The position numbers and the translations under genes are program-made. A DNA stretch of 32,000 nt from Candidatus Hermodarchaeota archaeon (lineage in GTDB: Archaea; Asgardarchaeota; Heimdallarchaeia; Hodarchaeales; Hodarchaeaceae): NCBI GenBank assembly GCA_048886185.1, contig JBHLKY010000013.1, forward strand, positions 1-32,000, written 5' to 3'. Below are positions 1 to 20,856 of the stretch, piece after piece. Under the pieces are notes generated by a model. The model made no database searches. It saw only the letters and a program-made list of their open reading frames with translations, and was not told where the DNA came from. Position 1 is the stretch's first letter; every line of letters begins with the position of its first letter.

Positions 1-3000
1 CTTGCTGGCTTACGGAATGCTACTGGGAGTGCAGACTTTGACAATGAGGTTCCCTTTGACCTCACCTATTCAGGGGGTTATGAGCTGACCTATACTGTCA
101 GCAGTGGGGAAACCGATAATGGTGATGATGTCATCATTACTGTATATGATCGAGTGGGGAATAGTATCACAAGGACTCTGAATTGTGTGCTTGACAATGC
201 TGCTCCAAGTATTGTTTTGGCTGATACTGCTGTAACAGAAACTTCTGATTTCACTTATTATCCACAAGATGGCACTCAAATTCTATGGTATAGCAATAAG
301 ATGTCTGGGGATATTAATATCGAAATTACGATCACATCAGATGATGGATCTGATTCAGGAGTTCAAGCTGTCGAGTTTCCTGCATTATTTAATGAGGTAA
401 TTCCTATCAATGATACTACAGTTGGATTTTTCCAGATATACACAATATCAACCGATAGTAATGATAATGGGACTTTCATTTTTACCAGCTTTGACAATGT
501 TGGAAATTCTGCAACAGTTACACTAGATATTATCCGCGATAACCAAGTCCCCGATCAATCCTCTATTAGTGCGATTATAGAAAGCTCTGTCTATATTCAC
601 AGAAATCCAACATATTCACGACTTTGGTATTCTGACCTCATGGGTAGTACATCTGTTCCTGTAAATATCGTGTTGACGGGCATTGATCCTGGATTGACTG
701 CTGCTGGTTTAGCTACCATTACTTTTCCGACTATTGGTGATGAATCACCTGGTAACATTACTTCTGGTACTTCTAGCTATTCAGTGATTTATAATCTCAC
801 TGATTCTGATAGCACTACTGGAGTTTTATCCTTTATTGTATATGATCGTGTAGGTAATCAATATCAGATCCCTCTTGAGGTTATTAATGATATTACAATT
901 CCTTCAATCCAATTTAATGATGTAGAAAACCCCATTTACGATCCTAATGCCAATGAATTGGATGATATTGGCAATTGGTATGATCAAGCCGAACTCACAG
1001 GGGGTTATTCTATTATCTCTCAACCTAGTGATCCATTAAGTGGTACTAGGCAAGGTAGTGGCGTTTATACCGTTTTTCTTGACTGGGATAGTACGAATAA
1101 TCCTGATGATCAACCTTCTTTTGATATAGGCGCTGATGGTGATCATAATGTAATTGGCTTGACTGATGATGCAGATGCAAATATTACTATAACTTTAATT
1201 GTAGTAGATAATGTCAATAATTCATTCCAGAGAAGTATTACTATCCGTTTCGACAATACAGATCCTGTATGTCCTGATCTTACCACGTTACACCAGAATG
1301 GCCCTATTATTTCCCTTGTTGGATCAGCTACAGACACTAGATCTGGAATTCAAAATATTACTCTTACTGATCTTAGTGCTTCCCAACACTTCCCCAACCT
1401 TATTACTAGTGGTTTTGATAGTTGGATTCTTGAGAATTCATCTTCTCTAGATGTGGATATTGTTCCTGGTCAAAATATAACTATTAATGTGGCTGTTTTT
1501 GATAATGTAAACAATAAATACAGTTACAATTCAACCATTACTTTTCATACCCTCAAATTCCTTGTTTTTACTTCTAATATTCCTAAGCGCGTCGAAATTG
1601 ACAATCCAAATCCCTTGAAATGGAATATCACCATAGGCTTCGAGTTTGATGGCACACTAATTGATAATAATGATAAGATAATAGATCGATTTCTCAACCA
1701 ATCAACTCTATTGACGCAATTTAGTGCTTGGATCAATGGAACATCCCTTCCAATCAAGGATGGTTCTTTAATTTGGCTCCCTGGCCCCCAGTTTCAATTT
1801 ACGGTCATTCTTCCAGATAGTTCTAGTTCCCTAGATGTGTTGAAGCATCTCCCTCTTGGGGAAACCCTCAGTAAAGACATTCGTGTTGAGTGGAATATCA
1901 CCACAGCTTTCATTGATGTTTTAATCAATCATACAAAGTCGAAAGTTGTGTCTTATCATGATCTTGAAATCCTCTACTTAAATGATGATATCAGTATTAC
2001 TGAAACAGATAATCCCGATATTATGAATATCGTTCTGCACCTCAGGAAAGATCATCAAGCTCTTGATACCTGGTCTGGTGTGTTAGAGTTCACTCTCAAT
2101 GGGGGAACTGCGATTATTGAGGGGGCTATTTCTCCAGAAGGAGTCGGTACGGGTAATTGGAGTATTCCTATTCGACTTCCGTCTGGATTACTACCTGGAT
2201 TGAAGGATATTTCTTTCTTATGGCGTTATGATCTTGGAGATTACTATTACGTAACTGAATTTAATACGAGCACTGATGTAGTCAATTATCATGATATCAA
2301 CATTACTGCTAATATTCCATCCCAGCTGTTCGAGATCGATGATGACTTCAATTTCACAGTCTATTTCACGATCACTGAGGATTATGGGAATGGTTCTGGA
2401 CCAATCCCTATTCTTGGTTTACAAAGCACAAATTTAACTGCTTTTAGAATATTGAATAACGATCTGTTTAACCAGACATGGAATTTCACAGATCTCGGTG
2501 GACTGGGTGATTATGCATTCAATTTCACGCTTTATGAAGCTAATACTTCTGAGTCATGGTTGGGTTCTCGATCAGTTTTCTTCAAAATAATTAGTTCAAC
2601 TGGCTTATTTGAGTGGGGTCAAGCAATAATTTTAGGACATGACCTCCAAATGACTATCCTCTCAATTGAAACTCTTACTGGGATTCAAATCTTTGATCCC
2701 GATGAACGTACTTCCTTTGTAATGGAAATTAAGGTTCGAGATAATAACGGAACAGGACCGATTAATGTTGTTGGTTTAGATGCTAGTAATTTCATTCAAA
2801 TATTTATGCAGAATGTAGATCAGGAAAATCAAAATACTACCATAATCTCTAGTGAAGACTGGCAAGAGTTAGCTACTCCTGGTGAATATAGAATTACATT
2901 TGTTTTGGAAGCACTTGCGGCGAGTCAGCTATCCCTTGGAGACATAAGAGTAGAGTTATCTATCAATGACACGAATGGGCATCGTATTGTTCAATCAATT

Positions 3001-6000
3001 ATTGAATTAGTAAGTAGAGATACGGTCGATTTATTAGGACTAGAATGGATCAGTACGCCATTTGGTACCTTTTTCTTTAATGATGTAACTGCAAGGATGG
3101 ATTATACTTTTCGTGTAACTGTAGGCCAAAAATTGAGTGTGTGTTTCAGAATATACAAACTAGAGGAACCCCCAGGGTCTATTTCAGACGCAAATGTTAC
3201 AGTTTTCTGGAACACACCTTGGAATATTACTAATCCAGAGCAAAGTCATCCCACCAGCAGATACATTACTTTGAATCTTACTTCAAATATTGTGTATCGT
3301 CAGAAATTTGTTGCTTATGTTGAAAACAATCTAGAAAAACAGCTCCAATTACAACCATGGTCTTTCTTTGTTGAATGGGATGAGATTCGTGCTGACCCAA
3401 TAGCGATTGACGATAGTACAGACGATGATGAAGCGAGTGTGTTAAATATCGACGGGAACTATACTCTCACTTATACAGCGAAATTTGACCGTTCTAATAT
3501 TAATGTAAAAGGCTCTCAATTTGAAATTGGTATTAATTTATATCAGTTCGATGGAATTGATTGGATTCTTTATGATGGAAATTTAACTGAACAGCTAGGG
3601 GGGACAAATACCTTAGATCATGATCTCATTAATGGTTTGACAACTATCCTACATCAAGATGGAAATGGATCAAGAATATTCTTTTTCGAGAAAGAAGGGA
3701 TAATTGTTGGGAAGATGTACATTGCAGATGTTGAAAATTCATTCCTGTTAGCAGATGGGCAGATCAAGTTAATTCTTCAGTTCTATGATATTTTCAAAGT
3801 AAATATCAATTTCAGGACTATAAATGAGACGGGAGACGATGTTACATATCGATACTATCCATCTTATTATACTGGATCAGGGCCAGTATATTCTTCTGTG
3901 AATGAAACTTCTCAAACCGTATTTCAGGATACATTAATCTGGACAAAGTTCAATGTACGGATGTGGGTCGATGATGATCGAATCCCCCAGCTCACTCCAG
4001 GAACAGTCTATCTAGAAGCCTACTATGCTCATAACGCTTCATGGATACTTGATGATGAGGTGTATATTTATATAGTTGATACTTCTCTTGAACTTACACA
4101 ACCAATAGCACGGAACGAGTGGGAGTACAACCATATCATCACATTCTCTAATCTGATTTCAGGTTGGGATGCTTCGAATGGTTGGAAAGCCAAATATAAC
4201 ATTTCTTCATTTGAAGATTCTCGATATGGAATTTCTGGATTTACCGATAAATTCACCCAAGAATCAGATGTATTTGTTGAGATCATCTGGGATCAAATTG
4301 TTTTCGAGTTCTCCTTACCTGAACCTTGGGGAGAAAATCTACGATTTAATGTCAATACTTCCGCATACATTCAGGTTGTGGCTTATTATTTATATGATAA
4401 GCAACCATTTATAGGAACATTCTTTACTCGTCACGGTTATAATCCACCATTACTCACTTCTATTTCATTAGGTTCTAGAACTTGGGGGAATGAATCAGTA
4501 ATATTCTCAGTTCAACCAGGTGCTAGAGAAAAAGAATTCCATGGTCAAAAATATTTTATACTTGAAAATGTCACTGAAGATTTTTGGGAGTTAAATGGGA
4601 CAAAGGAAGGCGTAGGGTATCGTGTTTCATACAATTTTGATGACCTCTTATTGCTATTAAAGTGGGATCGTATAATTGTAGATTTTGATCTCAATATTGA
4701 ATCACCTAAAGCTGGAGATAATGTAAAGGTAACAATTAACGCATATTACGAGAGTAATCCAGAAAAACATTTGAATACAGCAGACTTTTCCTTCCTAATC
4801 TATAGGGATGGTCAACCCTTCCTAAACGCAAGTGGTAACGAACTTTTCTTCCATTATCATGAATTATATCCTATAAACCATACTTATGAGATGATATATG
4901 CGCACGACTCAAGGACTAATTTAACTGGTGCCTTTACTGTCGCATTTGAACCTAATCCCCGTATAACAATAACATGGAATGATCTGCAACCACCACGGTT
5001 AATTGAACAAAGAATCATTGATTTTGGTAATGGAACTATTGGTTTCCTAGTGATGGTTACAGATGACCAACCAGAAGAATATTTTGGGAGTGGGATTCAG
5101 AGTGTTATAGTGGAACTTAAAGTTCAAGAGTCACCTTTTGGTCAATGGTCAAAACTTAACTTAACAAGATATAAAGATACACTAACATTCTTTGGGACAA
5201 TTAACTCTTCACCTGATGATCCTCGTGAGTATTTCCATTATGGTGAAAGAATTAGATATAATATCAGTATAATTGATTTTGTTGAAAACCTAGAAACAGA
5301 ATCTTTCTCAAAACATCTAGACTATGATAGTGAAATCCCAAGAATCAGTCCGATAATGTGGAATTATTCATTAGAAGTCGATGGAAATCTGAATATATCA
5401 TTCATTGCTTCAGACAATTGGTCTGGTTTAAGGAAAGCAATTATACGTATATTTAATGAGAACTTAAACAAGTGGGCAGAAATAAAAGAAATGAATCGTA
5501 TTAATCAAACTTCAGATTCTTTACAAGATATAGCTTTATATTGGATCAACTATAATTTTACTGTTGGTTTTACCTATAAATATGAAATCACCGTTATAGA
5601 TGTATCAGGAAAATCTTATGTGGATCGTGGAAATATCCTAGTTATTGATAAGTCAGCACCGCGCGTAGAATCCATTAAATTTGAATATAGAGATTTTGGT
5701 CAATTTTTCATAAGCTTAACAGTAGTAGATAATGGATCGTTGATTGATACAGTAGTACTCACCTATCAAATAGGTGAAAATCAAACTTCAATCAGTTTAG
5801 CGAGAGTAGTGGAAGGTGGTGGAGGATCAAGTTTTCAAGAAAATAATTATCTGGACTCACAGTCGTTTTCTAAAAATTTTGTCATTGCTCCAGATTTGAT
5901 TAGCTCAAAAACTGTGTTATTCTCTCTAATAATTACTGATTCCGAAGGAAATCAACGTAAAATACCTCACTCTGAGATATCTCAATATTTAACAGGATCA

Positions 6001-6684
6001 AAACCTAATGGGTTTAATATTCCTTCAATTTCAACAGACATTATATATCGAATCGAATTTCTATTCATTATTGTGATATTTGTATTTAGTGTTGCTATTG
6101 TTAGTGTACGCAGATTCCGCACTATTAGCGGATTTGAAAAGAAAAAGGTTCTCGAAGAGTTAGTAAAGATATCTGAAAATGAAGTTTGGCAGGAAAATGA
6201 TAACATTTCAATTGGATTATTTGTGAATTTCTTTGATCAGGTCAAAGGGCCTGTACCCATTATTTGGTTCCCAGATAAACCAAATATATCTGAAAAAATG
6301 CGGTTTTCTTTAGCTGATAGATCATTCTCAACATTAGGTTTTGTTAGCAATGCGAGTGAGGAGAAAGATGCAACTTTCCGTTATCATTTTGCTGGTGACA
6401 ACTGTATGGCATTTGGGTATGCTTTTGCGATTGAGAAACCTGAAGCCCGTGGAGGTCAAGAAAATCTTTCAATCTGCTTCTTGATACGTCCACCATGGGG
6501 TAATCTTGAAAATCTTAATAAATTCAGAAGTGAATTAGTTGAACATTTTCAACAAATTAGTGAACTAATTAAATCAGATTCAGATGTAAAAATCATTCAG
6601 CAAAAGATGCAAAACACACGTAACTTTTTTACACGAGCGATGTTAACATTCAGAAGAAAATACAGGCAGGAGTTTTTAGAATAG
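1..6684 (+). CDS. Giant single-pass surface protein (5'-truncated, >2227 aa): Ig-like repeat ectodomain, TM helix, cytoplasmic longin/uDENN-like domain
   Basis: Frame 1 is open from base 1 (LAGLRNATGSADFDNEV...YDRVGN); the track's 'M' at 154 is the GTG/Val inside a YDRVGN repeat motif, so the true start lies upstream of the window. Repeated DxVGN...DNxxP beta modules; TM IEFLFIIVIFVFSVAIVSV (~6052-6108) followed by RRFR; cytoplasmic FFDQVKGPVP, DRSFS and EARGGQENLSI motifs. Confidence 0.85.
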   Translation, partial: LAGLRNATGSADFDNEVPFDLTYSGGYELTYTVSSGETDNGDDVIITVYDRVGNSITRTLNCVLDNAAPSIVLADTAVTETSDFTYYPQDGTQILWYSNKMSGDINIEITITSDDGSDSGVQAVEFPALFNEVIPINDTTVGFFQIYTISTDSNDNGTFIFTSFDNVGNSATVTLDIIRDNQVPDQSSISAIIESSVYIHRNPTYSRLWYSDLMGSTSVPVNIVLTGIDPGLTAAGLATITFPTIGDESPGNITSGTSSYSVIYNLTDSDSTTGVLSFIVYDRVGNQYQIPLEVINDITIPSIQFNDVENPIYDPNANELDDIGNWYDQAELTGGYSIISQPSDPLSGTRQGSGVYTVFLDWDSTNNPDDQPSFDIGADGDHNVIGLTDDADANITITLIVVDNVNNSFQRSITIRFDNTDPVCPDLTTLHQNGPIISLVGSATDTRSGIQNITLTDLSASQHFPNLITSGFDSWILENSSSLDVDIVPGQNITINVAVFDNVNNKYSYNSTITFHTLKFLVFTSNIPKRVEIDNPNPLKWNITIGFEFDGTLIDNNDKIIDRFLNQSTLLTQFSAWINGTSLPIKDGSLIWLPGPQFQFTVILPDSSSSLDVLKHLPLGETLSKDIRVEWNITTAFIDVLINHTKSKVVSYHDLEILYLNDDISITETDNPDIMNIVLHLRKDHQALDTWSGVLEFTLNGGTAIIEGAISPEGVGTGNWSIPIRLPSGLLPGLKDISFLWRYDLGDYYYVTEFNTSTDVVNYHDINITANIPSQLFEIDDDFNFTVYFTITEDYGNGSGPIPILGLQSTNLTAFRILNNDLFNQTWNFTDLGGLGDYAFNFTLYEANTSESWLGSRSVFFKIISSTGLFEWGQAIILGHDLQMTILSIETLTGIQIFDPDERTSFVMEIKVRDNNGTGPINVVGLDASNFIQIFMQNVDQENQNTTIISSEDWQELATPGEYRITFVLEALAASQLSLGDIRVELSINDTNGHRIVQSIIELVSRDTVDLLGLEWISTPFGTFFFNDVTARMDYTFRVTVGQKLSVCFRIYKLEEPPGSISDANVTVFWNTPWNITNPEQSHPTSRYITLNLTSNIVYRQKFVAYVENNLEKQLQLQPWSFFVEWDEIRADPIAIDDSTDDDEASVLNIDGNYTLTYTAKFDRSNINVKGSQFEIGINLYQFDGIDWILYDGNLTEQLGGTNTLDHDLINGLTTILHQDGNGSRIFFFEKEGIIVGKMYIADVENSFLLADGQIKLILQFYDIFKVNINFRTINETGDDVTYRYYPSYYTGSGPVYSSVNETSQTVFQDTLIWTKFNVRMWVDDDRIPQLTPGTVYLEAYYAHNASWILDDEVYIYIVDTSLELTQPIARNEWEYNHIITFSNLISGWDASNGWKAKYNISSFEDSRYGISGFTDKFTQESDVFVEIIWDQIVFEFSLPEPWGENLRFNVNTSAYIQVVAYYLYDKQPFIGTFFTRHGYNPPLLTSISLGSRTWGNESVIFSVQPGAREKEFHGQKYFILENVTEDFWELNGTKEGVGYRVSYNFDDLLLLLKWDRIIVDFDLNIESPKAGDNVKVTINAYYESNPEKHLNTADFSFLIYRDGQPFLNASGNELFFHYHELYPINHTYEMIYAHDSRTNLTGAFTVAFEPNPRITITWNDLQPPRLIEQRIIDFGNGTIGFLVMVTDDQPEEYFGSGIQSVIVELKVQESPFGQWSKLNLTRYKDTLTFFGTINSSPDDPREYFHYGERIRYNISIIDFVENLETESFSKHLDYDSEIPRISPIMWNYSLEVDGNLNISFIASDNWSGLRKAIIRIFNENLNKWAEIKEMNRINQTSDSLQDIALYWINYNFTVGFTYKYEITVIDVSGKSYVDRGNILVIDKSAPRVESIKFEYRDFGQFFISLTVVDNGSLIDTVVLTYQIGENQTSISLARVVEGGGGSSFQENNYLDSQSFSKNFVIAPDLISSKTVLFSLIITDSEGNQRKIPHSEISQYLTGSKPNGFNIPSISTDIIYRIEFLFIIVIFVFSVAIVSVRRFRTISGFEKKKVLEELVKISENEVWQENDNISIGLFVNFFDQVKGPVPIIWFPDKPNISEKMRFSLADRSFSTLGFVSNASEEKDATFRYHFAGDNCMAFGYAFAIEKPEARGGQENLSICFLIRPPWGNLENLNKFRSELVEHFQQISELIKSDSDVKIIQQKMQNTRNFFTRAMLTFRRKYRQEFLE
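145..1515 (+). repeat. Five N-terminal Ig-like protein repeats with D-x-V-(G/N)-N motif
   Basis: YDRVGN, FDNVGN, YDRVGN, VDNVNN, FDNVNN with Asp codons at 148, 493, 844, 1207, 1501 (spacing 115, 117, 121, 98 aa); the first four are followed by a DNxxP/DITIP linker. DNA is diverged, so these are old duplications. Confidence 0.75.
3376..4977 (+). repeat. Four ~104-188 aa ectodomain repeats bounded by a W(D/T)xI-type motif (protein 1)
   Basis: Trp codons at 3376 (EWDEI), 3940 (IWTKF), 4288 (IWDQI), 4663 (KWDRI), 4975 (TWND); internal AYY-type motifs (EAYYAHN, VAYYLYD, NAYYESN). Confidence 0.6.
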
Positions 6685-6690
6685 TGCTAT

Positions 6691-9600
6691 ATGGAGGAAA
6701 AAAAAGAGTTGATGATGAACAAATACCCTCATAAATTATTCTATATTTTCATAATACTCATATTATCTGGAACATTTTTTTGGGATATTTTATCCAGTTA
6801 TAAGCCAAGGGAGATACTTATTGTAACAGATGATTCTCAAAACTCCAAAACTATCCGACTTATGTCCTCAGCCCCATTAACCCAGAATAAGATTCATAAC
6901 TTAACTCAACCAGAGATTAATCCTCCATTAGTAAATAATGAAGATGATATAATTCCCGTTCAAGGCCTAAATGTGCCTAATAATACCACATTCCTACATC
7001 CAACCTTCAAGATCACCTCATCAAATGATGTGGCCATCGATAAAATAAATCCTGAAGCAATGGAGATTAACGCAAGTTCAATGACTTTTTTATTAAATTT
7101 TACAATAGTTGGAGCGATTGGACAGGGTTCCACTGCGTTTGAGAAATTAACACTCAACAACACTGTAGAGAATTACCAAATTGCTACTTGGAGTGATTGG
7201 CAATTTAGCCCCTTCAATGACCATTACTCCCTGATATTTACTCTCAATAACTCATTTTTTTCAAGTTTATCTCTTGGGAATTACGATTTAACGTTATTTA
7301 CGAATATCTTGGGTCACAGGTCAAACGATTCCATTCCGTTACCAATGAAAGATTTACAAATAACGATTAATAGTATATCACCACCTCAATTTAACAATAA
7401 ACTTGATGAAGATCAAAGATTCAACATTACAATAACTATACAGGAGTATGATGGAGTCAATACTCAAAAAATTAATAAATTACCTCCAATCCTTGATAAA
7501 GATTCCAGAAACATAAATCCGAATGTTACTATCATCTCTGCTACTCAAGAAGAATCGGCCCCACTACATTTTGTGCGATTCATAAGTAATTCAACCTCAG
7601 AAGGGAGATATACATTCGAAGTTAATCTAACACGAGACGACGCGCCTTATTTTGAGGATGGAATGCACACATTAGCCATTAGTGTCACGACATATGAATG
7701 GATAAGAGCAAATGATACAAAGTACAATTATTTTCAAGCGAAAGGTACCATTTACATCGTTAGGCTAAAAGAAATTACTGTAGGATCAAATAATCCCTTA
7801 GATTATAATGAATTAACAAATAATGGAAAAGATCATAAAGAATTTCGTGTTAATATAAACGAATCTATCATTGTTCGTTATGAAGTTGTAGATAATAGCA
7901 CAAACAACCCCCCTAATCCGTTATCGTTGATTGCAGGCCAGTTAATCGGTTATCAGGATCCTAATCGGCCTGATGATCCATTTGCTTTGAATACCTCTAC
8001 CATCCCAGCTTCAGGAAATGGAACCATTTTATTAACAGCAAATGTTCTTACCTCCTCTGATGGATATTCCCTATTATTCTTTGTAAGAGGCCACAGAACG
8101 TCCCAATTGACATGGGGATTTTCTAATATTACTATTTTCTGGGACATTTTATATTATGAATACACTTATTATGATAATTTGGGAGATGTAGGAACAGGGA
8201 ACTGGGAAAATCCCAATTATATTCAAAGAGCGCTAGGAATTGATATCAATGCATGGTGGGCATTTCAGTTAGGTGTTTATTATGCTTCAGATGATTCTCC
8301 TGCATTAAGTTCACAGATTTCTTATCATTTTTCTAACGAGTCATGGCAGGATCTAACAGATGGAGAAGATAATGATTCCCTAGATGGTACTTTTTTAATT
8401 AATCGTACTGAATCAAAGGCCACTGTCCTGAATCTTTCAATTCAAATAATTAATGGATCCATTATTGACCCTCAGGGAACATTGTTTGTCAACAAGACAT
8501 TAGGTGAGGCAAATATTACTATTCCCATAATATGGACTTATTTAATTATTGAAATGACACCTCAAGAATCAGATAGACGACTTGGTACAAATAGGAGGAC
8601 CACAATCAACTTAACTGCATATTGGGCCCATAACACAATTTTATCTTTCAATGGTACTTTGAATGTCATGTACCCCCCTCCGATTGGTTCTGAAATGGGA
8701 TTAATAATAGGATTAACCTTAATAGATGGACAAGTAAATTGGACACAAGGAATAGTCCAGACAAATACAGGTATTTATACCTACAAAGTTTCAGGGATTA
8801 ATCCAAAATTAAATATCTTCGGTGTTGAAACGTTCAAGAATTCAACCGATGGACTAGAAGTTCAAACTAAAATTATCTGGGAGGAAATCTATTTTTCTTT
8901 TTCCCAAGATGGATTGAGTTTTCACGATGACCTAGAATTTTTTGCGAATTTTAATGAAAATGCAACTTTATATTGTTATGGAAACCATACCTTTGATGGA
9001 GAACCTTTCAAAGGAGAGGCTTTTCTTTTAGACTTTGATCGTGCGGATGAATACCCTCTGATTTTTAATGCAAGTGGTATCGCCATATGGGAAGGTGATT
9101 TAACTGAAGTTCGTTTTCCTGTGTCTTTTAGTATTTATGAAATCACTTACTCATCCGAAATAGATTGGGAGGTTTATAAAATTGGAAGGAAGACATATGT
9201 TGTAATTTCTTGGGATAAAATTCTGGTAACCCTTTCAGCTGATCAATCTTATTCCCATGGAACCATAGCGAGAATAGATATAGATTTCGAATATTTAGTT
9301 TATATTGATAAAGATGTTAACGATACTGCCATCGAATTTGACCTCCTCTTAAGTAATGGTTCTACTCTTCATTTTTCTGGGGGAAATAACACTTATTTTT
9401 TTGATTACAGCCATAAGCCAGATGTTCGTTGGTATAATGTATCTGATCTTTATGATGCCAGCACTGGTATAACAGGATTTGAGGCTCGATATAAGTGGAA
9501 TGATATTTTAGATATGACAACACCTCAGTCTGATAAGAATATGACCATCTGTTGGATCGATGATAAGAATCCCTCTATCTTGGAGTATAGTTGGTATGAT

Positions 9601-11382
9601 TTTGGTAATGGAACAATCATAATAATAGTTGATGTTACTGATAATAGTGAGGACTGGTTTGGAAGTGGAATTAGGAGTGTTGCACTAATTGATAAACGAG
9701 AGGATATAAATCAACGGTTTTCCGATTCTGGAGGAATTAAATATTACCAATTCATTTCTGGGGTTTATAGATATGTTTTTATTTATAGATATAACCAAGA
9801 GACTGCACAGGGGCTTTTTAAGTTCGAATTCAATGAAACCTTGGAGTTTCAATTAAGCGTAACTGACAATGGGACAGTGGAAACCTTCCCGCAATGGTTG
9901 GGATCAAAGCGTGACCCACATACAGTTACAACTAAAACTTTCTCTATCCATGTTGATTATGATCCTGATAAACCATTATTTATCAGGAAAGATGGATATT
10001 TCATCACAATTTCTTACAAAACGATATCAACTGTTGAGCTATCAAACGACATAAAAAATATCACAGATGGCTCTATAATTGTTATTGTGGCCGCTTTTGA
10101 CTCTTGGGCTGGATTAGATGACTACTCGATCCAGTTAATTGTCACTGATATTTCAAATAGGACTATTCTTTATGTAGTAACCATGGATCGCATTAATAAT
10201 CCTGAAGATAGCCACTCGGAATTCCAGTTTGAATGGGAAGGAATTTTGAGTGTTAGTAGGGCTTATTCATTTAAAGTTACTGTGATAGATAACGCTGGTA
10301 ATACTAACTCTTGGACCAGGATTACCGAAATTGAAGATCATGTGGCTCCTCGGGTCAAATATGTGAGTTTTACACCCACATCTGATCGAAAATTGAATAT
10401 TATGGTTACAATCGAAGAGAAAGGGTTAGGAATTAATTACATTGAGGGTGGAATAAAGTATGGGGAAAAGATCTTGAAGTGGGTTAATTTAACGTATCAA
10501 GGGGGAGGAAGGGGAGGACAACAGGCATCTGGATCAGAATTACGAAATTATTCAGCGTTAGTAACACTTGATTTTGATTTGTATGAAATCTTCTTTATCA
10601 AAAACTATTTCCTTGTACTTAATGTATCTGATAATGCAGGAAATTTGAAGCATTATAGTTCAGATGAACTGATAAATATTTGGGATCTTACAATTGACGT
10701 TGCTTTAGACCCGCTTATGCTTCACCCTTTCTTCTTAATATCAGCAGGACTTTGCCTTCTAATTGGAATTATAATAGGAGTTAGAATCACATCAAAGACT
10801 GTAGGATACGATATACAACATATCCTAGTTGAAAGTGATAGAGTTTCTCGCGAAATTGTACTCACAATGATGGATGAGTATGCATTAGGTATCACGGTCA
10901 ATTTCTTTGACCAAGTTCAAGGTCCCGTTCCTGTTATTTGGGAACCCCCTCTTCTTGAAGACCAACAACAAATTATGCTTGATTTATCTGATAAATCCTT
11001 TTCCACATTAGAATTTGTGGGATCAGAAGAAGATGAACGAAGCGGGATCTTTGATTTCTCCACAGGTAGTTATGACTGTATTGCTTTAGGATATTCTTTT
11101 GCTATTGCTAATCCTGCTGCTCGTGGAGGAAAGGAGAATTTATCGATTGTTTTATTATTAAGAAAAGAGTGGGGAGACAATTTATTATTTTTCCAAGATA
11201 TATTACTCGAAAAAATTCGTGAAATTCGAAAGTTAATTGAAGCTCAAGAGGCATCTTCTCTGATTTCGAAAAAAGGAAGGGAATTACGAGAGTTTGTATC
11301 GCGACTTATGATTGCATTCAATAAATTATATTCTGATATAGATCATAAAGTAGAATCAAAGGTGGTTATGAAAAATGCGTAG
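6691..11382 (+). CDS. Giant single-pass surface protein (1563 aa), paralog of protein 1, with cytoplasmic longin/uDENN-like domain
   Basis: N-terminal hydrophobic signal (KLFYIFIILILSGTFFW; true start may be ATG 6712 or 6715); shares DFGNGTI..VTD...GSGI and DxAP modules with protein 1; TM PFFLISAGLCLLIGIIIGV (~10726-10782); FFDQVQGPVP, DKSFS and AARGGKENLSI motifs. Confidence 0.88.
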   Translation: MEEKKELMMNKYPHKLFYIFIILILSGTFFWDILSSYKPREILIVTDDSQNSKTIRLMSSAPLTQNKIHNLTQPEINPPLVNNEDDIIPVQGLNVPNNTTFLHPTFKITSSNDVAIDKINPEAMEINASSMTFLLNFTIVGAIGQGSTAFEKLTLNNTVENYQIATWSDWQFSPFNDHYSLIFTLNNSFFSSLSLGNYDLTLFTNILGHRSNDSIPLPMKDLQITINSISPPQFNNKLDEDQRFNITITIQEYDGVNTQKINKLPPILDKDSRNINPNVTIISATQEESAPLHFVRFISNSTSEGRYTFEVNLTRDDAPYFEDGMHTLAISVTTYEWIRANDTKYNYFQAKGTIYIVRLKEITVGSNNPLDYNELTNNGKDHKEFRVNINESIIVRYEVVDNSTNNPPNPLSLIAGQLIGYQDPNRPDDPFALNTSTIPASGNGTILLTANVLTSSDGYSLLFFVRGHRTSQLTWGFSNITIFWDILYYEYTYYDNLGDVGTGNWENPNYIQRALGIDINAWWAFQLGVYYASDDSPALSSQISYHFSNESWQDLTDGEDNDSLDGTFLINRTESKATVLNLSIQIINGSIIDPQGTLFVNKTLGEANITIPIIWTYLIIEMTPQESDRRLGTNRRTTINLTAYWAHNTILSFNGTLNVMYPPPIGSEMGLIIGLTLIDGQVNWTQGIVQTNTGIYTYKVSGINPKLNIFGVETFKNSTDGLEVQTKIIWEEIYFSFSQDGLSFHDDLEFFANFNENATLYCYGNHTFDGEPFKGEAFLLDFDRADEYPLIFNASGIAIWEGDLTEVRFPVSFSIYEITYSSEIDWEVYKIGRKTYVVISWDKILVTLSADQSYSHGTIARIDIDFEYLVYIDKDVNDTAIEFDLLLSNGSTLHFSGGNNTYFFDYSHKPDVRWYNVSDLYDASTGITGFEARYKWNDILDMTTPQSDKNMTICWIDDKNPSILEYSWYDFGNGTIIIIVDVTDNSEDWFGSGIRSVALIDKREDINQRFSDSGGIKYYQFISGVYRYVFIYRYNQETAQGLFKFEFNETLEFQLSVTDNGTVETFPQWLGSKRDPHTVTTKTFSIHVDYDPDKPLFIRKDGYFITISYKTISTVELSNDIKNITDGSIIVIVAAFDSWAGLDDYSIQLIVTDISNRTILYVVTMDRINNPEDSHSEFQFEWEGILSVSRAYSFKVTVIDNAGNTNSWTRITEIEDHVAPRVKYVSFTPTSDRKLNIMVTIEEKGLGINYIEGGIKYGEKILKWVNLTYQGGGRGGQQASGSELRNYSALVTLDFDLYEIFFIKNYFLVLNVSDNAGNLKHYSSDELINIWDLTIDVALDPLMLHPFFLISAGLCLLIGIIIGVRITSKTVGYDIQHILVESDRVSREIVLTMMDEYALGITVNFFDQVQGPVPVIWEPPLLEDQQQIMLDLSDKSFSTLEFVGSEEDERSGIFDFSTGSYDCIALGYSFAIANPAARGGKENLSIVLLLRKEWGDNLLFFQDILLEKIREIRKLIEAQEASSLISKKGRELREFVSRLMIAFNKLYSDIDHKVESKVVMKNA
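8140..9555 (+). repeat. Four ~111-131 aa ectodomain repeats bounded by a W(D/T/E)xI-type motif (protein 2)
   Basis: Trp codons at 8140 (FWDIL), 8533 (IWTYL), 8878 (IWEEI), 9211 (SWDKI), 9553 (CWIDD); same register as the repeats of protein 1. Confidence 0.6.
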
Positions 11383-14300
11383 ATATTATATATTGATTTT
11401 AATAACAATTTCAATGCTCAATGTGAGTGGCCTATTCTATAATTTTGTGATAAATAAATCATCTGTCTTTCAGGAAGAAAATATACATGGATTAAGGAAT
11501 AGTAGATTATACCTGACCAATAATATACCCTTGGTTCCAACAATTCAATTAGAAAATGGTTTCAATTCTATCAACCCAACCATAATCGATTTGGAACCAC
11601 ATCTAGCTGTTCAACAGATTAATGTTACATCAATATTAGATATCTCTGGTGATAAAAGCCCATATTCTTTAGTTTTTGAGGAAAACATTTGGGATGCCAT
11701 TCTTGGCTCGGATCCCGTTCTTGTTGATAATCCATCATTATATCAAAATGGTTTAATAGTTACTAATAGTACTGTGTTCCCAATCGATGAATCTATTACC
11801 ACCAATGAATTAGCATCTGTGAACAACTCTTTATTTGTTAGGATAGGGAATAATGGGTATGGATCAACCTATAGAGAACCAGAGAATCAGAATGATCCAG
11901 ATGAAGATATTTCAGGAGGGATTTCTGCAGGATGGCAGATTAATTTTTCGGTTGAAGATGATTTTGAGGTCATTCAAGTGAGCTTCAAATGGCGCTTTGA
12001 TGCTCAAGATTGGGCCTTTGATATTTATAATGAATCATTACCATGGTTTATGAATCCTGATACTTCAGACGATTATCAAGAAGTACGATGTCGAATCAAG
12101 CATCCTTACTCCGACCAATCTTCCTTCTGGATGGGAAATTCCAAAAACCAAACAAATCCTAATGGCACAGTTTTTTATCGAGTAGGACCTATTGTTGAGA
12201 AAGATGAAGAGTGGTATTTTTTCAACTACAGTTTTCATCTCCCTCCAACAGAAGATGTCATCCTTGAACTCGGCACTTATTTAAATACACGAGAAAGATA
12301 TGATGAATATTTCGATGTGTGGTTTGATGATATCCTCATACAAGGTGTGAATAACATTACAGATAAGCTTGCACCTCACCCCATTAATTTTGATCTAAGT
12401 AAGACAGAAGATGTGTCTAGATGGGAATTTTGGGTTAATTTATCGGAAGGAACGTGGGAAACACCAATAAAAAATGTAACAGTTGTTTTCTATAACCAAA
12501 GTTTAATTCTTACAAACCGAAGTTTATCTCTAAATAACACCATTTTGAATGAGGCAGGGTATAATCAGACCCATTGGCAATATTCTGAACATTTCACTTT
12601 TGGTGAAAATATTTCCTTTAAATTTTTGATATATGATGAAGCTGAAAACTACAAGGAAACAGAGGAAAAGAAACAGAGGATTGGAGATTTTGACCCTCCC
12701 AAGATCACAACCAGTCCACTGACGATTAATAATCTTAATTTTGTACGTCAACTCGGAAATGGAACTATTTTGATAAGAGTGGGTACAAGTGACTGGGGAA
12801 ATGCAACTGATGATGTAATACTTAATTATACCCTTAATTTTAGAAATGGAACACGTTATAATAATGCGGTTTACATGTCTAAAAATGGATCAGATTATCA
12901 GTATAAACTTTTTGTAAGTTATAGAACACTTCTTGAGTTTAGAATTATACTGACTGACACTGCAAGTAACCTACGAGAATATCCTGAGGATCATAGATGG
13001 TTCAATGTTGTAAGTGAGATTGACAACATACCACCTCTGGTCAATTTTACAATTAATGCAAGTAAATCAGAGGAGGGTCGTACATTCGTTTATGTAGATG
13101 CAGAAGATCCTTTTGGTAACATTGATAATCAGTCAGTATTTTTGGTTATTTTACATGAAGATGGAACACTCGAAAATATATCACTCGTAAAAGGTGTTGC
13201 AGGAACTTATGGGTTGGGAACTAGCCTCAATCTAAAGTACGCTAAAAAATACAACATGACTGTTTTCGCCCGTGATGAAGGAGGTTTAGTCAACAGCTCA
13301 AGTCAATTTTACGTTGTGCCTGATAAAATAGCGCCTAAAATAAGCAGTATTGATCCAGAATACTTGTATCCTGGTAAATTACGTATTTGGGTTCAAGCTA
13401 GTGACCTAGGGAGTGATATAGATTATGTTACTTTTGAGAAAAGAGAGAATAACGAATGGGCTGCCGCCATTAAATTAATTAGAGTAAATAGTAATAACTT
13501 TTATTTGGAGGTAAACACGGGTTGGTTTGGGAATGAAAAGATAATTTATAGGATTAATGCAATTGATAACGAAGGAAATCTGATAGAAAATCTACCAATA
13601 AAAAGTCATACTACACCATTCTTCTTCACTACAGTTCCAGGATTGTTATTATCTGAATTAATTGTTGTTTTAGTAGCTGTGAGTATGTTTGCTTCAATTA
13701 GAATCATTCAATTGCGACAACTACGAGTTCGCCGCCGAAGACGCTTCGATATTGCCTTGGGTCGCAGTGAACGTCTCGCCTACCTTGGTGAGGAGGCTAT
13801 GTTTGGTTTTGTTGCCGCCTATAGTCAAGGTGAAGACGTTTCCAGCATCCTCCTATGGGAACCCCGTTTAATAGGCCATTTCTACCAATACCTAAAAGAA
13901 CTCGTTGACAAAGCAAATACTAACATATCATTCATCATGAAGGCCAAGGCTATGGATCTTGTGACCTTTGTTGACTTTAAGATTGAACAGATTGGTTGTT
14001 CTGCCATTACTTATGCTTATCCTGTGTCCACTCTTCCTCAGCGATGGTTATCATCTGTGACTCTTGATCAAGTTCCCATTGGTGGTGGTCAAGGTGTGTT
14101 ACTCTTAATGTTACTAATGCGAGAAAAATGGGGTGAAATTGCAAACAATTTTCAAGATGAAATTTCTGATGGTATGTTAGAGCTGAAAGATCTCATCTTG
14201 TCGGGAGAAGATAAAGAAAATCTACTTCGCAAATCTCAAGAGTTTAGATTGTTTATTTCAGGGACTTTAGAAGTTCTAGACGAGATTGAAACAGAAACTG

Positions 14301-14398
14301 ATGAAGTTTCAGACGACATTATGGGTGATTTTGAGACTGAATTTCTTGATGAGATTCATGATGATGAGGAATCACGTGATGAAGATCTCTCTGACTAA
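11375..14398 (+). CDS. Single-pass surface protein (1007 aa) with CBM-like N-domain, Ig-like repeats, TM helix, degenerate longin/uDENN-like domain and acidic tail
   Basis: Signal MRRYYILILITISMLNVSGLF; overlaps protein 2 by 8 nt; GNGTI, DNIPP and DKIAP modules; TM VPGLLLSELIVVLVAVSMFASI (~13634-13699); C-domain aligns with proteins 1/2 (LWEP, C.AI.YAY, GGQ..L...LMREKWG). Confidence 0.85.
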   Translation: MRRYYILILITISMLNVSGLFYNFVINKSSVFQEENIHGLRNSRLYLTNNIPLVPTIQLENGFNSINPTIIDLEPHLAVQQINVTSILDISGDKSPYSLVFEENIWDAILGSDPVLVDNPSLYQNGLIVTNSTVFPIDESITTNELASVNNSLFVRIGNNGYGSTYREPENQNDPDEDISGGISAGWQINFSVEDDFEVIQVSFKWRFDAQDWAFDIYNESLPWFMNPDTSDDYQEVRCRIKHPYSDQSSFWMGNSKNQTNPNGTVFYRVGPIVEKDEEWYFFNYSFHLPPTEDVILELGTYLNTRERYDEYFDVWFDDILIQGVNNITDKLAPHPINFDLSKTEDVSRWEFWVNLSEGTWETPIKNVTVVFYNQSLILTNRSLSLNNTILNEAGYNQTHWQYSEHFTFGENISFKFLIYDEAENYKETEEKKQRIGDFDPPKITTSPLTINNLNFVRQLGNGTILIRVGTSDWGNATDDVILNYTLNFRNGTRYNNAVYMSKNGSDYQYKLFVSYRTLLEFRIILTDTASNLREYPEDHRWFNVVSEIDNIPPLVNFTINASKSEEGRTFVYVDAEDPFGNIDNQSVFLVILHEDGTLENISLVKGVAGTYGLGTSLNLKYAKKYNMTVFARDEGGLVNSSSQFYVVPDKIAPKISSIDPEYLYPGKLRIWVQASDLGSDIDYVTFEKRENNEWAAAIKLIRVNSNNFYLEVNTGWFGNEKIIYRINAIDNEGNLIENLPIKSHTTPFFFTTVPGLLLSELIVVLVAVSMFASIRIIQLRQLRVRRRRRFDIALGRSERLAYLGEEAMFGFVAAYSQGEDVSSILLWEPRLIGHFYQYLKELVDKANTNISFIMKAKAMDLVTFVDFKIEQIGCSAITYAYPVSTLPQRWLSSVTLDQVPIGGGQGVLLLMLLMREKWGEIANNFQDEISDGMLELKDLILSGEDKENLLRKSQEFRLFISGTLEVLDEIETETDEVSDDIMGDFETEFLDEIHDDEESRDEDLSD

Positions 14399-14440
14399 TA
14401 ATAATACAAAAGCTTTCAATAAACATTGACGGTGTGAAAA

Positions 14441-14689
14441 TTGACCAACCTTTTGAGAATACGGACCGAACCTTGTTCGATTTGCAAGAAAACATTGCCT
14501 TTGAGCATCTCTGCTGATGAGCTAAAACCCAATATCACTGGATTAGATTTGTTTCTTGATCTCCATGGAGTTGATCACGAAGAACCTCATGCACGTTTGC
14601 TATATATTGATGCTAAAGGTTTTGTCCGAACCATTTCATCGATCACGAAATTTACCTCCCTACTCCGTGATCAAACTCCATCGAAGTAG
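14441..14689 (+). CDS. Small putative Zn-binding protein (CxxC...HG...H...YID...VR)
   Basis: TTG start 42 nt after protein 3 stop; CSIC plus DLHGVDHEEPHARLLYIDAKGFVR; ordered beta-rich pattern typical of a real gene. Confidence 0.7.
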   Translation: MTNLLRIRTEPCSICKKTLPLSISADELKPNITGLDLFLDLHGVDHEEPHARLLYIDAKGFVRTISSITKFTSLLRDQTPSK

Positions 14690-14698
14690 CGTATTGGA

Positions 14699-15103
14699 CT
14701 AGATGATATCCATATGAATTCGTTGAACAGTACCACGAGTCCCTTTCCGTGAGCAAGTCACGCTAAACAAGGGGATATTAAAGTCAACTGCTAAAAGAGT
14801 AGCATCATCCAGACTCTCTCCAACTAATATATCCAGAATAGCTCCGTCCTCGTGGCGGAAAATTCGGATATAAGCATCCTCTGTTTTTTTGGTTCCTGTT
14901 TCATCCCATCCTTTCTCCACAAGGACAATTGTCGGCCATAACTCACCTTTTTTGAACCAAGCATTACGCTCTGGAAGAGGGGCTTGTATCTTCTTTTTTG
15001 AAAGGGCGGGGAATGAAAACTTCTTATTGTCCTTAAGCTTGTTTCTTGTCATGCGAATGTCTGGATTTTGGCGGGCGATCCAACTATAAGTTCTATATTG
15101 CAA
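14699..15103 (-). CDS. Hypothetical protein (134 aa)
   Basis: ORF fills the gap convergent to the 82-aa gene (9-nt gap); TTG start uncertain (internal Met alternative); no recognised motif. Confidence 0.5.
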   Translation of the reverse strand: MQYRTYSWIARQNPDIRMTRNKLKDNKKFSFPALSKKKIQAPLPERNAWFKKGELWPTIVLVEKGWDETGTKKTEDAYIRIFRHEDGAILDILVGESLDDATLLAVDFNIPLFSVTCSRKGTRGTVQRIHMDII

Positions 15104-15279: not shown

Positions 15280-15774
15280 TTATGTTTTAGTCTTTTGAAT
15301 GTCGGTTTCTTCTGATGTTGATGATATTTCTAGAGACTTTCTGGAGATATTTCGTCCAATAACTATGAAAAAAAGGACTTCAAGTATGAATAAGAGGCCT
15401 TGGAGAAGTTCACTTTCCGAAAGCATTTCTAACATAAAAGTTAATGTTATTAACAGTCCTAGATAGAAAATGTCAGGGGAGAAGAGTTTTGTTGGTCTTA
15501 AGGCACTATTTTTGTATTGTACACTTCTTAACTCCATCAAGGCTACAAATCCTCCAATGGTTCCTCCAACTATCCCTCCTATATACAACAATGGAGGCCA
15601 AATAATTGGAACATTTGCCCACTGCTCTTGAGATATTAAATCAATTACTTCCGTTGCGAAGATGACAAGAACAGCACTAGTAAAAGGTGCTAATACGATA
15701 GCAAGAGTGATTTGCCAGGGGGAAATATCTTCTGAGTCTGATGAAGAGTTGTTTTGTCCGTCGGCTGTTTTCAT
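15280..15774 (-). CDS. Hypothetical membrane protein, ~4 TM helices
   Basis: Four hydrophobic segments including a GGIVGGTIGG glycine pattern; starts 14 nt after the lysS stop, so likely co-transcribed. Confidence 0.7.
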   Translation of the reverse strand: MKTADGQNNSSSDSEDISPWQITLAIVLAPFTSAVLVIFATEVIDLISQEQWANVPIIWPPLLYIGGIVGGTIGGFVALMELRSVQYKNSALRPTKLFSPDIFYLGLLITLTFMLEMLSESELLQGLLFILEVLFFIVIGRNISRKSLEISSTSEETDIQKTKT

Positions 15775-18989: not shown

Positions 18990-19706
18990 TTAAAGTTCTA
19001 AACGCTTATCTGGGACATAGGATAGAATTTTTCTAATTTCTTCTTCTTTTGAATTTACTCTGAAAACATTGGCAATTCGATAAATATGTGGATCAGTTTC
19101 GGGTTTAATGTAAAGATCTCCACTGAGGAAAAGCATTTTCTCAAAAATATCAGGTGTAGTTTTTTCAATGTGTGCGTGTTGGGCATTACCAAATCGCCTT
19201 TCATCACCTAAGATCCCACGGTGATGGTAAATTTCTGTGGGTGAAATTAACCAATAATCAATGCGGCTGTAAATATAAATGACAATAAGATGGATAAAAA
19301 CTAGCAATGCGAAGAAGAAATAGAATTCTAAAGAAGCTGTAATGGCAGGCCATTCAAGACCAAGACTAAGGTCAGGAAGCTGCGTTCGTAAAAGTAAGTA
19401 AATCAGAACGATAATTATTACGCCAAAAGCAATTAATGCCGTTTTTCCTAATCCAAAGTCGAAAGCAACAATGATAAAGTTGAATGCGAACACAGCAAAG
19501 AAAAATGTTCCTAATGCACTTGCCATCATTTCATCTTCCATTAGGTTTGGACTCAGAAGACTAATAAGTACAATAATAAAGGCAACGATCATACTAGGGT
19601 AGAAAAATAGCGTTTCAGGATATGATCTTACGATGATATATTCCTTTCTCTTCATAGATTTCTCTTCTTCTGTTTTTGTTGTCTCTAACATTTGTAGAAT
19701 CTCCAT
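18990..19706 (-). CDS. Membrane protein with C-terminal bacterial PH-like (bPH_2-type) domain
   Basis: About four TM segments, then YWLISPTEIYHHRGILG...DIFEKMLFLSGDLYI, matching the bPH_2 pattern; start may be an internal Met. Confidence 0.65.
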   Translation of the reverse strand: MEILQMLETTKTEEEKSMKRKEYIIVRSYPETLFFYPSMIVAFIIVLISLLSPNLMEDEMMASALGTFFFAVFAFNFIIVAFDFGLGKTALIAFGVIIIVLIYLLLRTQLPDLSLGLEWPAITASLEFYFFFALLVFIHLIVIYIYSRIDYWLISPTEIYHHRGILGDERRFGNAQHAHIEKTTPDIFEKMLFLSGDLYIKPETDPHIYRIANVFRVNSKEEEIRKILSYVPDKRLEL

Positions 19707-19836: not shown

Positions 19837-20856
19837 TTAACTAACGTCTATAACTCCTTCTCCCGTTATTGCAAACACTGTTTCACTCTCTGGTAGAAGA
19901 GGACTGTCAACAATTCGAGCAATACGTCGTTCTCCCTTTGATTTACGGAGATAGATACGTGTATGAGACACATGAGCTAGAATGTGACCACCCGCAGGCA
20001 TTGTGGGATCACCAAAAAACATATCTGGTTGGGAATGAACTTGGTTTGTTACAATTACTGCAACATTAGATACTTCTGCGAGTTTCAAAAGCGAATGAAG
20101 GTGTTGGTTTAATTTTTGTTGTCGTGCTGCAAGGGTTGCTCTACCAACGAATTCTGCACGAAAATGGGCTATGAGGGAATCTACAATAACCAGTTTAACA
20201 TTTTTAGATAAAGCTTCTTTGATAATATTCTCCACAAGCACCATTTGATGGTCGCTGCTATATGCACGACCATGGAAGATATGTTTTAATACCATTTGAA
20301 CATCCAAATCGTTACCAAAACGACTGGCCATAGCAACAATTCTTTCAGGCCGAAAGGTTCCTTCCGTGTCAATGTATATGCAAGATATAGGATTTTTATC
20401 ATCAGTATTGAAGCCTCCTAAGGCTGGAGGTAATTGACAAGTGACGCACAGTTGATGAGCGAGTTGAGTTTTTCCTGTCCGATATTCCCCATATAATTCA
20501 GTTATAGAACCAGTTTCTATCCCACCATTTAATAAATCATCTAGCGCGTCAGCACCAGTGGTTGCTTTAAGCATATTTCTCCGTGATTCGAGTATTATAT
20601 CCGCAGTTATGAATCCATATCCTAATTTCTCTCTTGCAGCTTTGATAATTTTCCCTGCAATCTTTTCTCCAAATCCTCCTAATGCCATTAATTCACTGAT
20701 ACTTATTGTTGCGACAGATTCGAGAGTTCTGAAGTTCGCTTCCTGAAGCTTCTTAGTTAGAGCGGGCCCGACACCTGGTAAATCCATCACAGTTATTTCT
20801 TGATTTTGTGTATTTATGTTTGTGATCTTTTGTGTTGAATTACCTGTTCTTTGCAT
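19837..20856 (-). CDS. radA: DNA repair and recombination protein RadA (Rad51/RecA family)
   Basis: N-terminal HhH (DLPGVGP), Walker A GEYRTGKT, YIDTEGTFRPER, Walker B IVDSL, TNQV, GGHILAH, RIVDSP. Confidence 0.96.
   Translation of the reverse strand: MQRTGNSTQKITNINTQNQEITVMDLPGVGPALTKKLQEANFRTLESVATISISELMALGGFGEKIAGKIIKAAREKLGYGFITADIILESRRNMLKATTGADALDDLLNGGIETGSITELYGEYRTGKTQLAHQLCVTCQLPPALGGFNTDDKNPISCIYIDTEGTFRPERIVAMASRFGNDLDVQMVLKHIFHGRAYSSDHQMVLVENIIKEALSKNVKLVIVDSLIAHFRAEFVGRATLAARQQKLNQHLHSLLKLAEVSNVAVIVTNQVHSQPDMFFGDPTMPAGGHILAHVSHTRIYLRKSKGERRIARIVDSPLLPESETVFAITGEGVIDVS

Follow-up and report, generated by a model that had tools for sequence, protein, structure and literature searches.

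The window analyzed here, 32,000 nucleotides (nt) forming the first 32 kb of contig C13 (C13:1-32000) in a 4.84-Mb, 96%-complete Asgard archaeal genome, opens with a conserved operon of three paralogous, predicted type-I surface glycoproteins, g1, g2, and g3. Each has a large ectodomain, a single transmembrane (TM) helix, and a C-terminal tail homologous to the other two. We consider it probable that these proteins are membrane-anchored longin regulators of the folliculin class acting on Rag-like GTPases, with g1 and g2 of the catalytic type and g3 a noncatalytic partner. Our reading of GTPase regulation draws on the high rank of longins of the GTPase-activating protein (GAP) type among structural matches to the tail, on the conservation of a Gly-Pro (GP) motif and a loop arginine, and on synteny with Rag-type GTPase genes across the tail family. 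The original prediction, made from the sequence alone, had proposed receptors wired to small-GTPase regulation; that interpretation is supported, with GAP activity a putative function by analogy with known longins.

Open reading frames (ORFs) on the + strand fill 1-14398, with a 6-nt gap between g1 and g2 and an 8-nt overlap between g2 and g3, confirming the three co-oriented genes proposed earlier. The operon had been drawn to 14689; its genes end at 14398, and 14399-14689 is intergenic. All three giant genes are present, but g1 is incomplete, cut by the contig start. The genes and their tails are as follows.

1..6684, + strand: gene 1 (g1), partial; last 2,227 amino acids (aa) of a giant surface protein, 5′ open at the contig start; repeat-rich ectodomain, then TM helix, then predicted cytoplasmic longin tail
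6691..11382, + strand: gene 2 (g2); 1,563 aa; ectodomain, TM helix, longin tail
11375..14398, + strand: gene 3 (g3); 1,007 aa; beta-sandwich ectodomain, TM helix, divergent longin tail
6109..6681, + strand: g1 predicted cytoplasmic longin domain, FLCN/SMCR8 class
10783..11379, + strand: g2 predicted cytoplasmic longin domain, catalytic type
13700..14395, + strand: g3 predicted cytoplasmic longin-homologous domain

Tail domain and catalytic-type motifs

The tails span 191 aa in g1, 199 aa in g2, and 232 aa in g3, within the range of about 190 to 240 aa given earlier, and their claimed homology was borne out. Identity is 38% between g1 and g2 (E 7e-47) and, by BLASTP, 24% between g1 and g3 (E 4e-8); hhalign joined a catalytic-type profile to a g3-type profile at 95.8% probability (E 7e-9, 151 columns). 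Nine such tails are found in this genome; each closes a long ORF (542-4,204 aa), and contig ends cut several of these ORFs. An AlphaFold2 model of the g1 tail, built from an alignment of these nine, had a predicted local distance difference test score (pLDDT) of 87.3 and a predicted template modeling score of 0.86. The model consists of two juxtamembrane helices followed by strand-strand-helix-strand-strand-strand-helix-helix, which is the longin order (strands, E, and helices, H: E28-37, E41-48, H56-70, E79-88, E91-103, E111-120, H134-149, and H154-184).

The g1 tail model was compared exhaustively with 48,161 PDB representatives. The best solved match was a Lokiarchaeal Roadblock-Longin protein, 8yqg (Z 13.9, root mean square deviation [rmsd] 3.0 over 140 residues, 16% identity). 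FLCN came with a Z of 12.5 (rmsd 2.5 over 134 residues), along with C9orf72 (11.7), Lst4 (10.6), SMCR8 and FNIP2 (both 10.5), NPRL2 (10.1), and Npr2/3 (9.4). Generic longins, including those of TRAPP, AP sigma/mu, VAMP7, Sec22, and Mon1-Ccz1, scored Z 7-9. Roadblock structures (3kye, 9jue, and 7f8m) scored Z 6-7, as did GAF and PAS folds, and the model ends in a pair of helices, as longins do. The tail is thus closer in structure to the GAP-type longins than to others, by a modest margin.

Other searches led to the same families. Foldseek against the PDB returned those of the exhaustive comparison, and the ESM Atlas returned a Heimdallarchaeota cluster carrying Pfam Folliculin, an Asgard GTPase-longin fusion, SMCR8, AVL9/DENND6, and C9orf72. 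Pfam Folliculin (PF11704) was the top, subthreshold match for g1 (E 0.0024) and g2 (E 0.001-0.0016); it matched 13 of 61 members of the tail family at E < 0.1, and no other Pfam family recurred. The genome also encodes a soluble 457-aa folliculin-type protein, to which the family profile aligned by hhalign at 80.9% (E 1.2e-5), with the P-E-A-R-G loops in register. The C-terminal 200 or so residues, for which a longin fold had been proposed, are accordingly predicted to have one, in g1 by the model, with FLCN, C9orf72, SMCR8, and NPRL2 outranking generic longins, and in g2 by its identity to g1. The g3 tail probably shares the fold by homology.

Two marks distinguish the GAP-type longins FLCN, NPRL2, and SMCR8: a GP motif in the loop, or where strand 2 begins, and an arginine finger; C9orf72 has the GP only, non-GAP longins have no counterpart of the GP motif and loop arginine, and both marks have been noted in soluble Asgard longins (PMC12290439). 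Their positions in the window, with those of the corresponding g3 stretches, are given here.

6229-6258, + strand: g1 GP motif stretch; G-P is aa 2083-2084
6448-6450, + strand: g1 Arg2150 codon, loop arginine
10903-10932, + strand: g2 GP motif stretch; G-P is aa 1411-1412
11122-11124, + strand: g2 Arg1478 codon, loop arginine
13820-13846, + strand: g3 positions corresponding to the GP motif; motif lost
14069-14095, + strand: g3 positions corresponding to the Arg finger; motif lost
14312-14344, + strand: g3 acidic tail motif, aa 980-990

In the g1 model, G-P opens strand 2 (E41-48) and A-R-G-G occupies the loop that connects strand 4 to strand 5. Among 61 diverse members, the glycine (G41) is kept in 60, the proline (P42) in 51, and the arginine (R108) in 52. 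The conserved arginine, R2150 in g1 and R1478 in g2, falls inside the stretch aligned by both Pfam Folliculin and the soluble folliculin-type profile. Its presumed counterparts are R164 in FLCN and R78 in NPRL2. The motifs picked out by eye in the original prediction stand, in g1 and g2, at the published GP and arginine positions; g3 has lost both.

This loss is shared by the g3 type as a whole. In g3 and five orthologous clusters, the G-P and the A-R-G-G arginine are replaced, a 13-aa insertion is present, and the protein ends in a conserved acidic motif; the type sits on a very long stem branch (3.39) in the domain tree. The acidic motif, resembling DDIMGDFE, follows the longin domain in six of six g3-type clusters and could be a short docking motif.

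Rag-type GTPase genes beside the family

A HMMER scan of 1.84 billion cluster representatives recovered 194 proteins at E < 0.001. The domain comes last in all 120 representatives in which it is complete, and a TM-like segment lies no more than 75 aa upstream of it in 103 of 115; protein lengths reach 5,809 aa. Within the phylum, the tail family is present in 57 of 301 genomes. It is found in 19 of 20 genomes of the window's genus, in 1-11 copies each, in 20 of 29 and 7 of 11 genomes of two other taxonomic families of the class, and sporadically elsewhere.

The genome has 62 Arf/Ras-like matches and about 11 strong Gtr1/RagA-like matches. Its Rag-like GTPases comprise short forms of ~300 aa, for instance at C9:88143-89048 and C28:6845-7759, a cluster on C30, and long forms of 570-740 aa. 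Beside the paralogue on contig C9, a 300-aa Gtr1/RagA-type GTPase gene ends 28 nt before the receptor gene on the same strand, and a 576-aa Rag-like gene lies divergently upstream. We searched the genus with this 300-aa GTPase and compared the coordinates of its matches with those of the family longin matches: 18 of 37 GTPase matches lay within about 5 kb of a family gene. In the genus loci that were inspected, Rag-like genes, some short (~300 aa) and some long (565-761 aa), accompany the family genes in no fewer than five distinct layouts. Outside the genus, seven of nine loci from three other taxonomic families directly adjoin Gtr1_RagA-type genes, typically in the order receptor, long Rag-like gene (same strand, 18-90 nt away), short one (opposite strand). 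The short neighbor GTPase aligns along its entire length with yeast Gtr1 (E 3e-37) and also matches human RagA (E 1e-32).

Because the arrangements are so varied, the data argue against chance adjacency. In the domain tree, family genes with a Rag neighbor fall on either side of the midpoint root; the loci in this tree were hand-picked, and some of those scored as lacking a Rag gene are on truncated contigs. Related loci are not independent, and hence no P value is given. A complex prediction for the C9 paralogue tail with the adjacent 300-aa Rag-like GTPase, GTP, and Mg scored 0.57, compared to 0.46 for a control in which chain 1 was replaced, a difference that speaks neither in favor of binding nor against it.

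Several further features of these loci were seen. Long Rag-like neighbors (500-761 aa; for instance, L032:13299-15581, L039:12668-14590, and L028:878-2605) carry a Gtr1_RagA domain within the first ~200 aa; the remaining 300-550 aa match nothing in Pfam. At G193:C97 (L041:6583-16134), in another taxonomic family, tandem family genes encoding 1,585 and 1,598 aa, each bearing the GP and ARGG motifs, lie directly upstream of a long Rag-like gene and make a second example of a multireceptor operon. Two genes downstream of the giant on contig C10 of the window's genome, a 313-aa ORF (G000:C10:8555-9493; L030) matched the tail profile weakly (E 1e-4) and had no Pfam match; a 742-aa Rag-like gene follows 5 kb further on.

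Topology, ectodomains, and surroundings of the operon

Each protein has one strong hydrophobic helix, 191-232 aa before its C terminus. The hydrophobic segments are listed below.

6052..6108, + strand: g1 TM helix, aa 2018-2036; Kyte-Doolittle 19-aa mean 2.91
10726-10782, + strand: g2 TM helix, aa 1346-1364
13643-13699, + strand: g3 TM helix, aa 757-775
6736-6792, + strand: g2 N-terminal signal/anchor, hydrophobic segment
11396-11452, + strand: g3 N-terminal signal, hydrophobic segment

Lysines plus arginines number 6, 2, and 8 in the 15 aa after the helix of g1, g2, and g3, compared to 1, 0, and 1 before it, which agrees with the earlier description of one TM helix trailed by basic residues. 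The N-terminal parts hold 57, 45, and 29 N-x-S/T sequons, compared to 24.7, 17.2, and 10.1 in shuffled sequence, an excess of 2.3-2.9 times, or about 7 standard deviations. This bias and this excess together fit an orientation that places the tails in the cytoplasm and the glycosylated parts outside.

The contig start cuts the g1 ORF. What remains runs colinearly (43.6% identity) along aa 6651-8857 of an orthologue in genome G208 that has 8,857 aa; the fragment would therefore be about the last quarter of the protein, with some 6,600 codons missing. The G208 orthologue starts with a signal peptide, and the first ~300-500 aa of the g1 fragment are repeated many times along it. Other orthologous frames are 8,821, 10,069, and 10,431 aa long. 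From these orthologues, complete at 8,800-10,400 aa, the full g1 is predicted to have ~9,000-10,000 aa.

The ectodomains were said to be made of immunoglobulin (Ig)-like repeats, and this has moderate support. Pfam recognizes almost nothing in them beyond subthreshold Big, PKD, and DUF7743 matches. The full-length model of g3 is poor overall (pLDDT 51.6), but over aa 450-760 it is all beta (pLDDT 70-84) and matches tandem Ig/FN3 arrays, including SiiE, MpIBP, and FN3 and Ig arrays of adhesins and receptors. Signal-like N termini (in g2, g3, and the G208 orthologue of g1), internal repeats, the sequon excess, and the g3 model agree with secreted, cell-anchored tandem beta-sandwich ectodomains, for which support from Pfam is weak.

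Paralogy within the operon extends well outside the tails: g1 and g2 are homologous over ~950 aa (E 5.5e-61), and g2 and g3 match at E 3e-14. In eight or more genomes of the genus, the three genes follow one another as g1-g2-g3 on one contig. Near-identical public homologues of g2 are all annotated "hypothetical protein" and come from Hodarchaeales, Heimdallarchaeota, or Promethearchaeota metagenome-assembled genomes, including B3_Heim. Together with the housekeeping neighbors and the GTPase complement, they identify the host as an Asgard archaeon of the Heimdall group, Hodarchaeales-like. Upstream of the orthologous operons in G208 and G119 there is ThiN, a TnpB-like gene, or another giant. 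The giant, in G119 (G119:C87:43127-52282; L027:3127-12282), is a 3,052-aa Ig-repeat protein without a longin tail, carries Big_3_3, Big_7, Y_Y_Y, and PKD, and lies directly upstream of the operon; the TnpB-like gene and ThiN occupy this place in G208.

Downstream of g3 in the window come two small ORFs without a family match and then class I lysyl-tRNA synthetase; this and the other neighbors, RadA, Orc1/Cdc6, and XPD, are archaeal housekeeping genes. Four ORFs have no Pfam family, 14699-15103, 15280-15774, 18990-19706, and 23828-25201, all on the − strand; a 164-aa ORF among them encodes a multipass membrane protein, and the first two keep their place beside the operon in G208 and G119. Between radA and orc1/cdc6 lies an AT-rich intergenic region of 857 nt (20857-21713), and the bin 20001-22000 has the lowest GC content in the window, 0.32. 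The region is a candidate replication origin; a repeat scan of it found no clear family of repeats resembling origin recognition boxes.

Mechanism, alternatives, and known longin systems

In the mechanism that we consider most likely, the ectodomains contact or bind something outside the cell, and the single helix joins each of them to a cytoplasmic longin. The g1 and g2 tails would act on Rag/Gtr-type GTPases, with activation, by analogy, through the arginine finger, and an extracellular contact would in this way become a change in the nucleotide state of the GTPase. The third protein, g3, would probably be a noncatalytic partner, as FNIP, NPRL3, or C9orf72 is. An operon with two motif-bearing copies and one motif-less copy suggests, again by analogy, a heterodimer of g1 or g2 with g3. 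The gene structure, topology signals, tail homology, longin fold, motif conservation, and Rag synteny across the family are results of the analysis; that the tails bind GTPases, act as GAPs, and pair with one another, and what kind of input arrives from outside the cell, we infer.

Several results weigh against regulation of Rag-like GTPases by longins of the folliculin class. The PF11704 matches are below the curated cutoff (18.1-19.4 bits for g1 and g2, compared to 23.3), and g3 has none; NCBIfam gave no match for any of the three tails. Searches of PDB sequences with the family profile and with the g2 tail found no FLCN, SMCR8, or NPRL2, only helical-bundle noise; the soluble 457-aa protein found no FLCN, SMCR8, or NPRL2 match among PDB sequences either. 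In structure, only a few Z units separate the GAP-type from the generic longins, the top match is an archaeal longin without a known function, and the g3 tail in the full-length model has a pLDDT of ~30 and no confident fold. No DENN or NPRL-specific module follows the longin, as the proteins end 0-60 aa past its last helix in 120 of 120 representatives. Finally, there is no GTPase or roadblock gene near the operon, either downstream of g3 in the window or at the complete orthologous loci in G208 and G119, and the three operon clades form separate, well-supported tree groups without Rag neighbors. Synteny with small-GTPase or roadblock genes, named earlier as a check, is thus present as Rag-type adjacency across the family but absent from the g1-g3 operon itself. 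Because the operon loci have no GTPase neighbor, the GTPase partner of g1-g3, if any, is encoded elsewhere.

The main rival to a GTPase regulator is a tether or platform, in which the tails would bring Rag-like GTPases or other longin/roadblock proteins to the plasma membrane, or keep them there, and the arginine would serve binding or structure. There are precedents: Ragulator holds Rags on lysosomes, and longin pairs work in GEF (guanine nucleotide exchange factor) complexes. The synteny shows coupling to Rags but not its direction, the closest structure is that of an archaeal Roadblock-Longin protein with no known role, and selection has preserved the domain in g3 even though the catalytic motifs are gone. 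Furthermore, most longin/roadblock modules serve as dimeric platforms, and some act as GEFs (PMC10933270), which also counts against a GAP. Against a platform, only GAP-type longins carry the GP motif together with the loop arginine (PMC12290439), and these residues are kept in 51-60 of 61 members, and GAP-type longins outrank those of TRAPP, AP, and Mon1 type. We regard a mere platform as a minority possibility, still to be taken seriously.

One can also envision adhesins or envelope proteins whose longin tail governs how they themselves are sorted, turned over, or anchored to the cytoskeleton and does not control GTPases. Giant, glycosylated, repeat-rich ectodomains that match adhesins and S-layer proteins would suit this role, as would an operon without a GTPase neighbor, and the longin domains of SNAREs and adaptor subunits do act in sorting. 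However, Rag-type adjacency across the family, in many arrangements, is hard to account for in this way, and the SNARE and adaptor longins are structurally more distant (Z 7-8.6); we think this explanation unlikely. That the folliculin likeness arose by convergence or has been overinterpreted, the domain being an ordinary alpha/beta sandwich of a roadblock, GAF, or PAS-like kind whose motifs are coincidental, would fit the lack of a significant sequence match to solved FLCN and the presence of LOV, PAS, and GAF folds lower in the structural lists, but it is very improbable given the longin-order secondary structure with two C-terminal helices, Z values of 6-7 for roadblock, GAF, and PAS compared to 10-14 for longins, weak Pfam Folliculin matches recurring in 13 members, and both motifs at their expected structural positions.

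If folliculin-class regulation of Rag-like GTPases is right for this family, a Rag switch of the eukaryotic kind may be connected to the surface of an archaeal cell. In eukaryotes, nutrient signaling and lysosome function are governed by folliculin, GATOR1, and C9orf72-SMCR8, which also have a part in disease and whose origin is a question in eukaryogenesis. Here the same catalytic type of longin would sit on the inner end of surface giants, in an archaeal group proposed to be closest to eukaryotes. That relatives adjoin Rag-type GTPase genes makes for a concrete hypothesis, approachable with small recombinant domains, and the operon offers a natural catalytic/degenerate pair for studying how the heterodimeric GAP design arose. 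It raises the question of whether longin GAPs already regulated Rags before eukaryotes, with the cell surface, not an organelle, as the first site of coupling. A bolder proposal, which we hold only tentatively and think may well be wrong, is that the Rag-folliculin/GATOR switch predates eukaryotes and lysosomes and began as a plasma-membrane receptor pathway in Heimdall-group archaea. Giant surface proteins with GAP-type longin tails would have acted on a Rag-like GTPase pair, and the operon would be a derived three-receptor set in which g3 pairs with g1 or g2, a forerunner of FLCN-FNIP or NPRL2-NPRL3.

Among known systems, the giant Ig-like adhesins and receptors (SiiE, MpIBP, RPTPmu, LAR, and the leptin receptor) resemble these proteins in the tandem beta-sandwich arrays of the g3 model, which is of moderate quality, and in the giant repeat structure of g1 as displayed by its 8,857-aa orthologue. 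The window proteins differ in being archaeal and C-terminally TM anchored, with a signaling-type tail and hardly any Pfam-recognizable domains. The Lokiarchaeal 8yqg, the best structural match to the tail and called dimeric in its entry title, is a soluble two-domain protein of another Asgard class.

SMCR8-C9orf72 and the NPRL2-NPRL3 pair of GATOR1 (Z 10.1-11.7) each combine a catalytic subunit bearing GP and arginine with an arginine-less partner, resembling g1/g2 and g3, with pairing in the operon an analogy only. Unlike them, the window proteins are membrane anchored, lack the DENN/NPRL C-terminal modules, and have no WDR41 or DEPDC5 equivalents that we could see. FLCN-FNIP2 is the GAP for RagC/D, with Lst7-Lst4 its yeast equivalent (PDB 6nzd, 6ulg, and 8dhb). 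The likeness to FLCN lies in the longin fold, the GP at the start of strand 2, the A-R-G loop between strands 4 and 5, the weak PF11704 signal, and the adjacency of the family's genes to Rag/Gtr-type GTPases. FLCN is soluble and has a C-terminal DENN module, whereas in the window the longin comes last in a giant surface protein that spans the membrane once, with sequence similarity under the Pfam cutoff and a heterodimer and GAP activity that are only putative.

Also close are the soluble Asgard Folliculin/SMCR8 longins (PMC12290439; 10.1101/2020.10.19.343400), which share the motifs, the hhalign match, and the lineage (Heimdallarchaeia). The one in this genome (G000:C6:93401-94771, − strand; L029:5401-6771) has an N-terminal folliculin-type longin with FDEEHGP and DDPEARG. 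It is cytosolic, like the others, and passes the PF11704 cutoff at 29 bits, whereas the window family is fused through a TM helix to giant ectodomains and stays below that cutoff. The soluble protein is kept in 20 of 21 other genomes of the genus, and immediately upstream of it are genes for a zinc ribbon and for a roadblock domain that is matched weakly. Published Asgard proteins already include Rag GTPases, longins resembling folliculin and NPRL2, and longins fused to two-component domains (10.1101/2020.10.19.343400; PMC10933270; PMC12290439). A literature search found no description of the TM-anchored giant longin form or of its Rag synteny, the 15 Asgard longins of PMC12290439 not having been compared individually. 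FLCN-type longins in Asgard archaea were already known; what is new is the membrane-anchored architecture.

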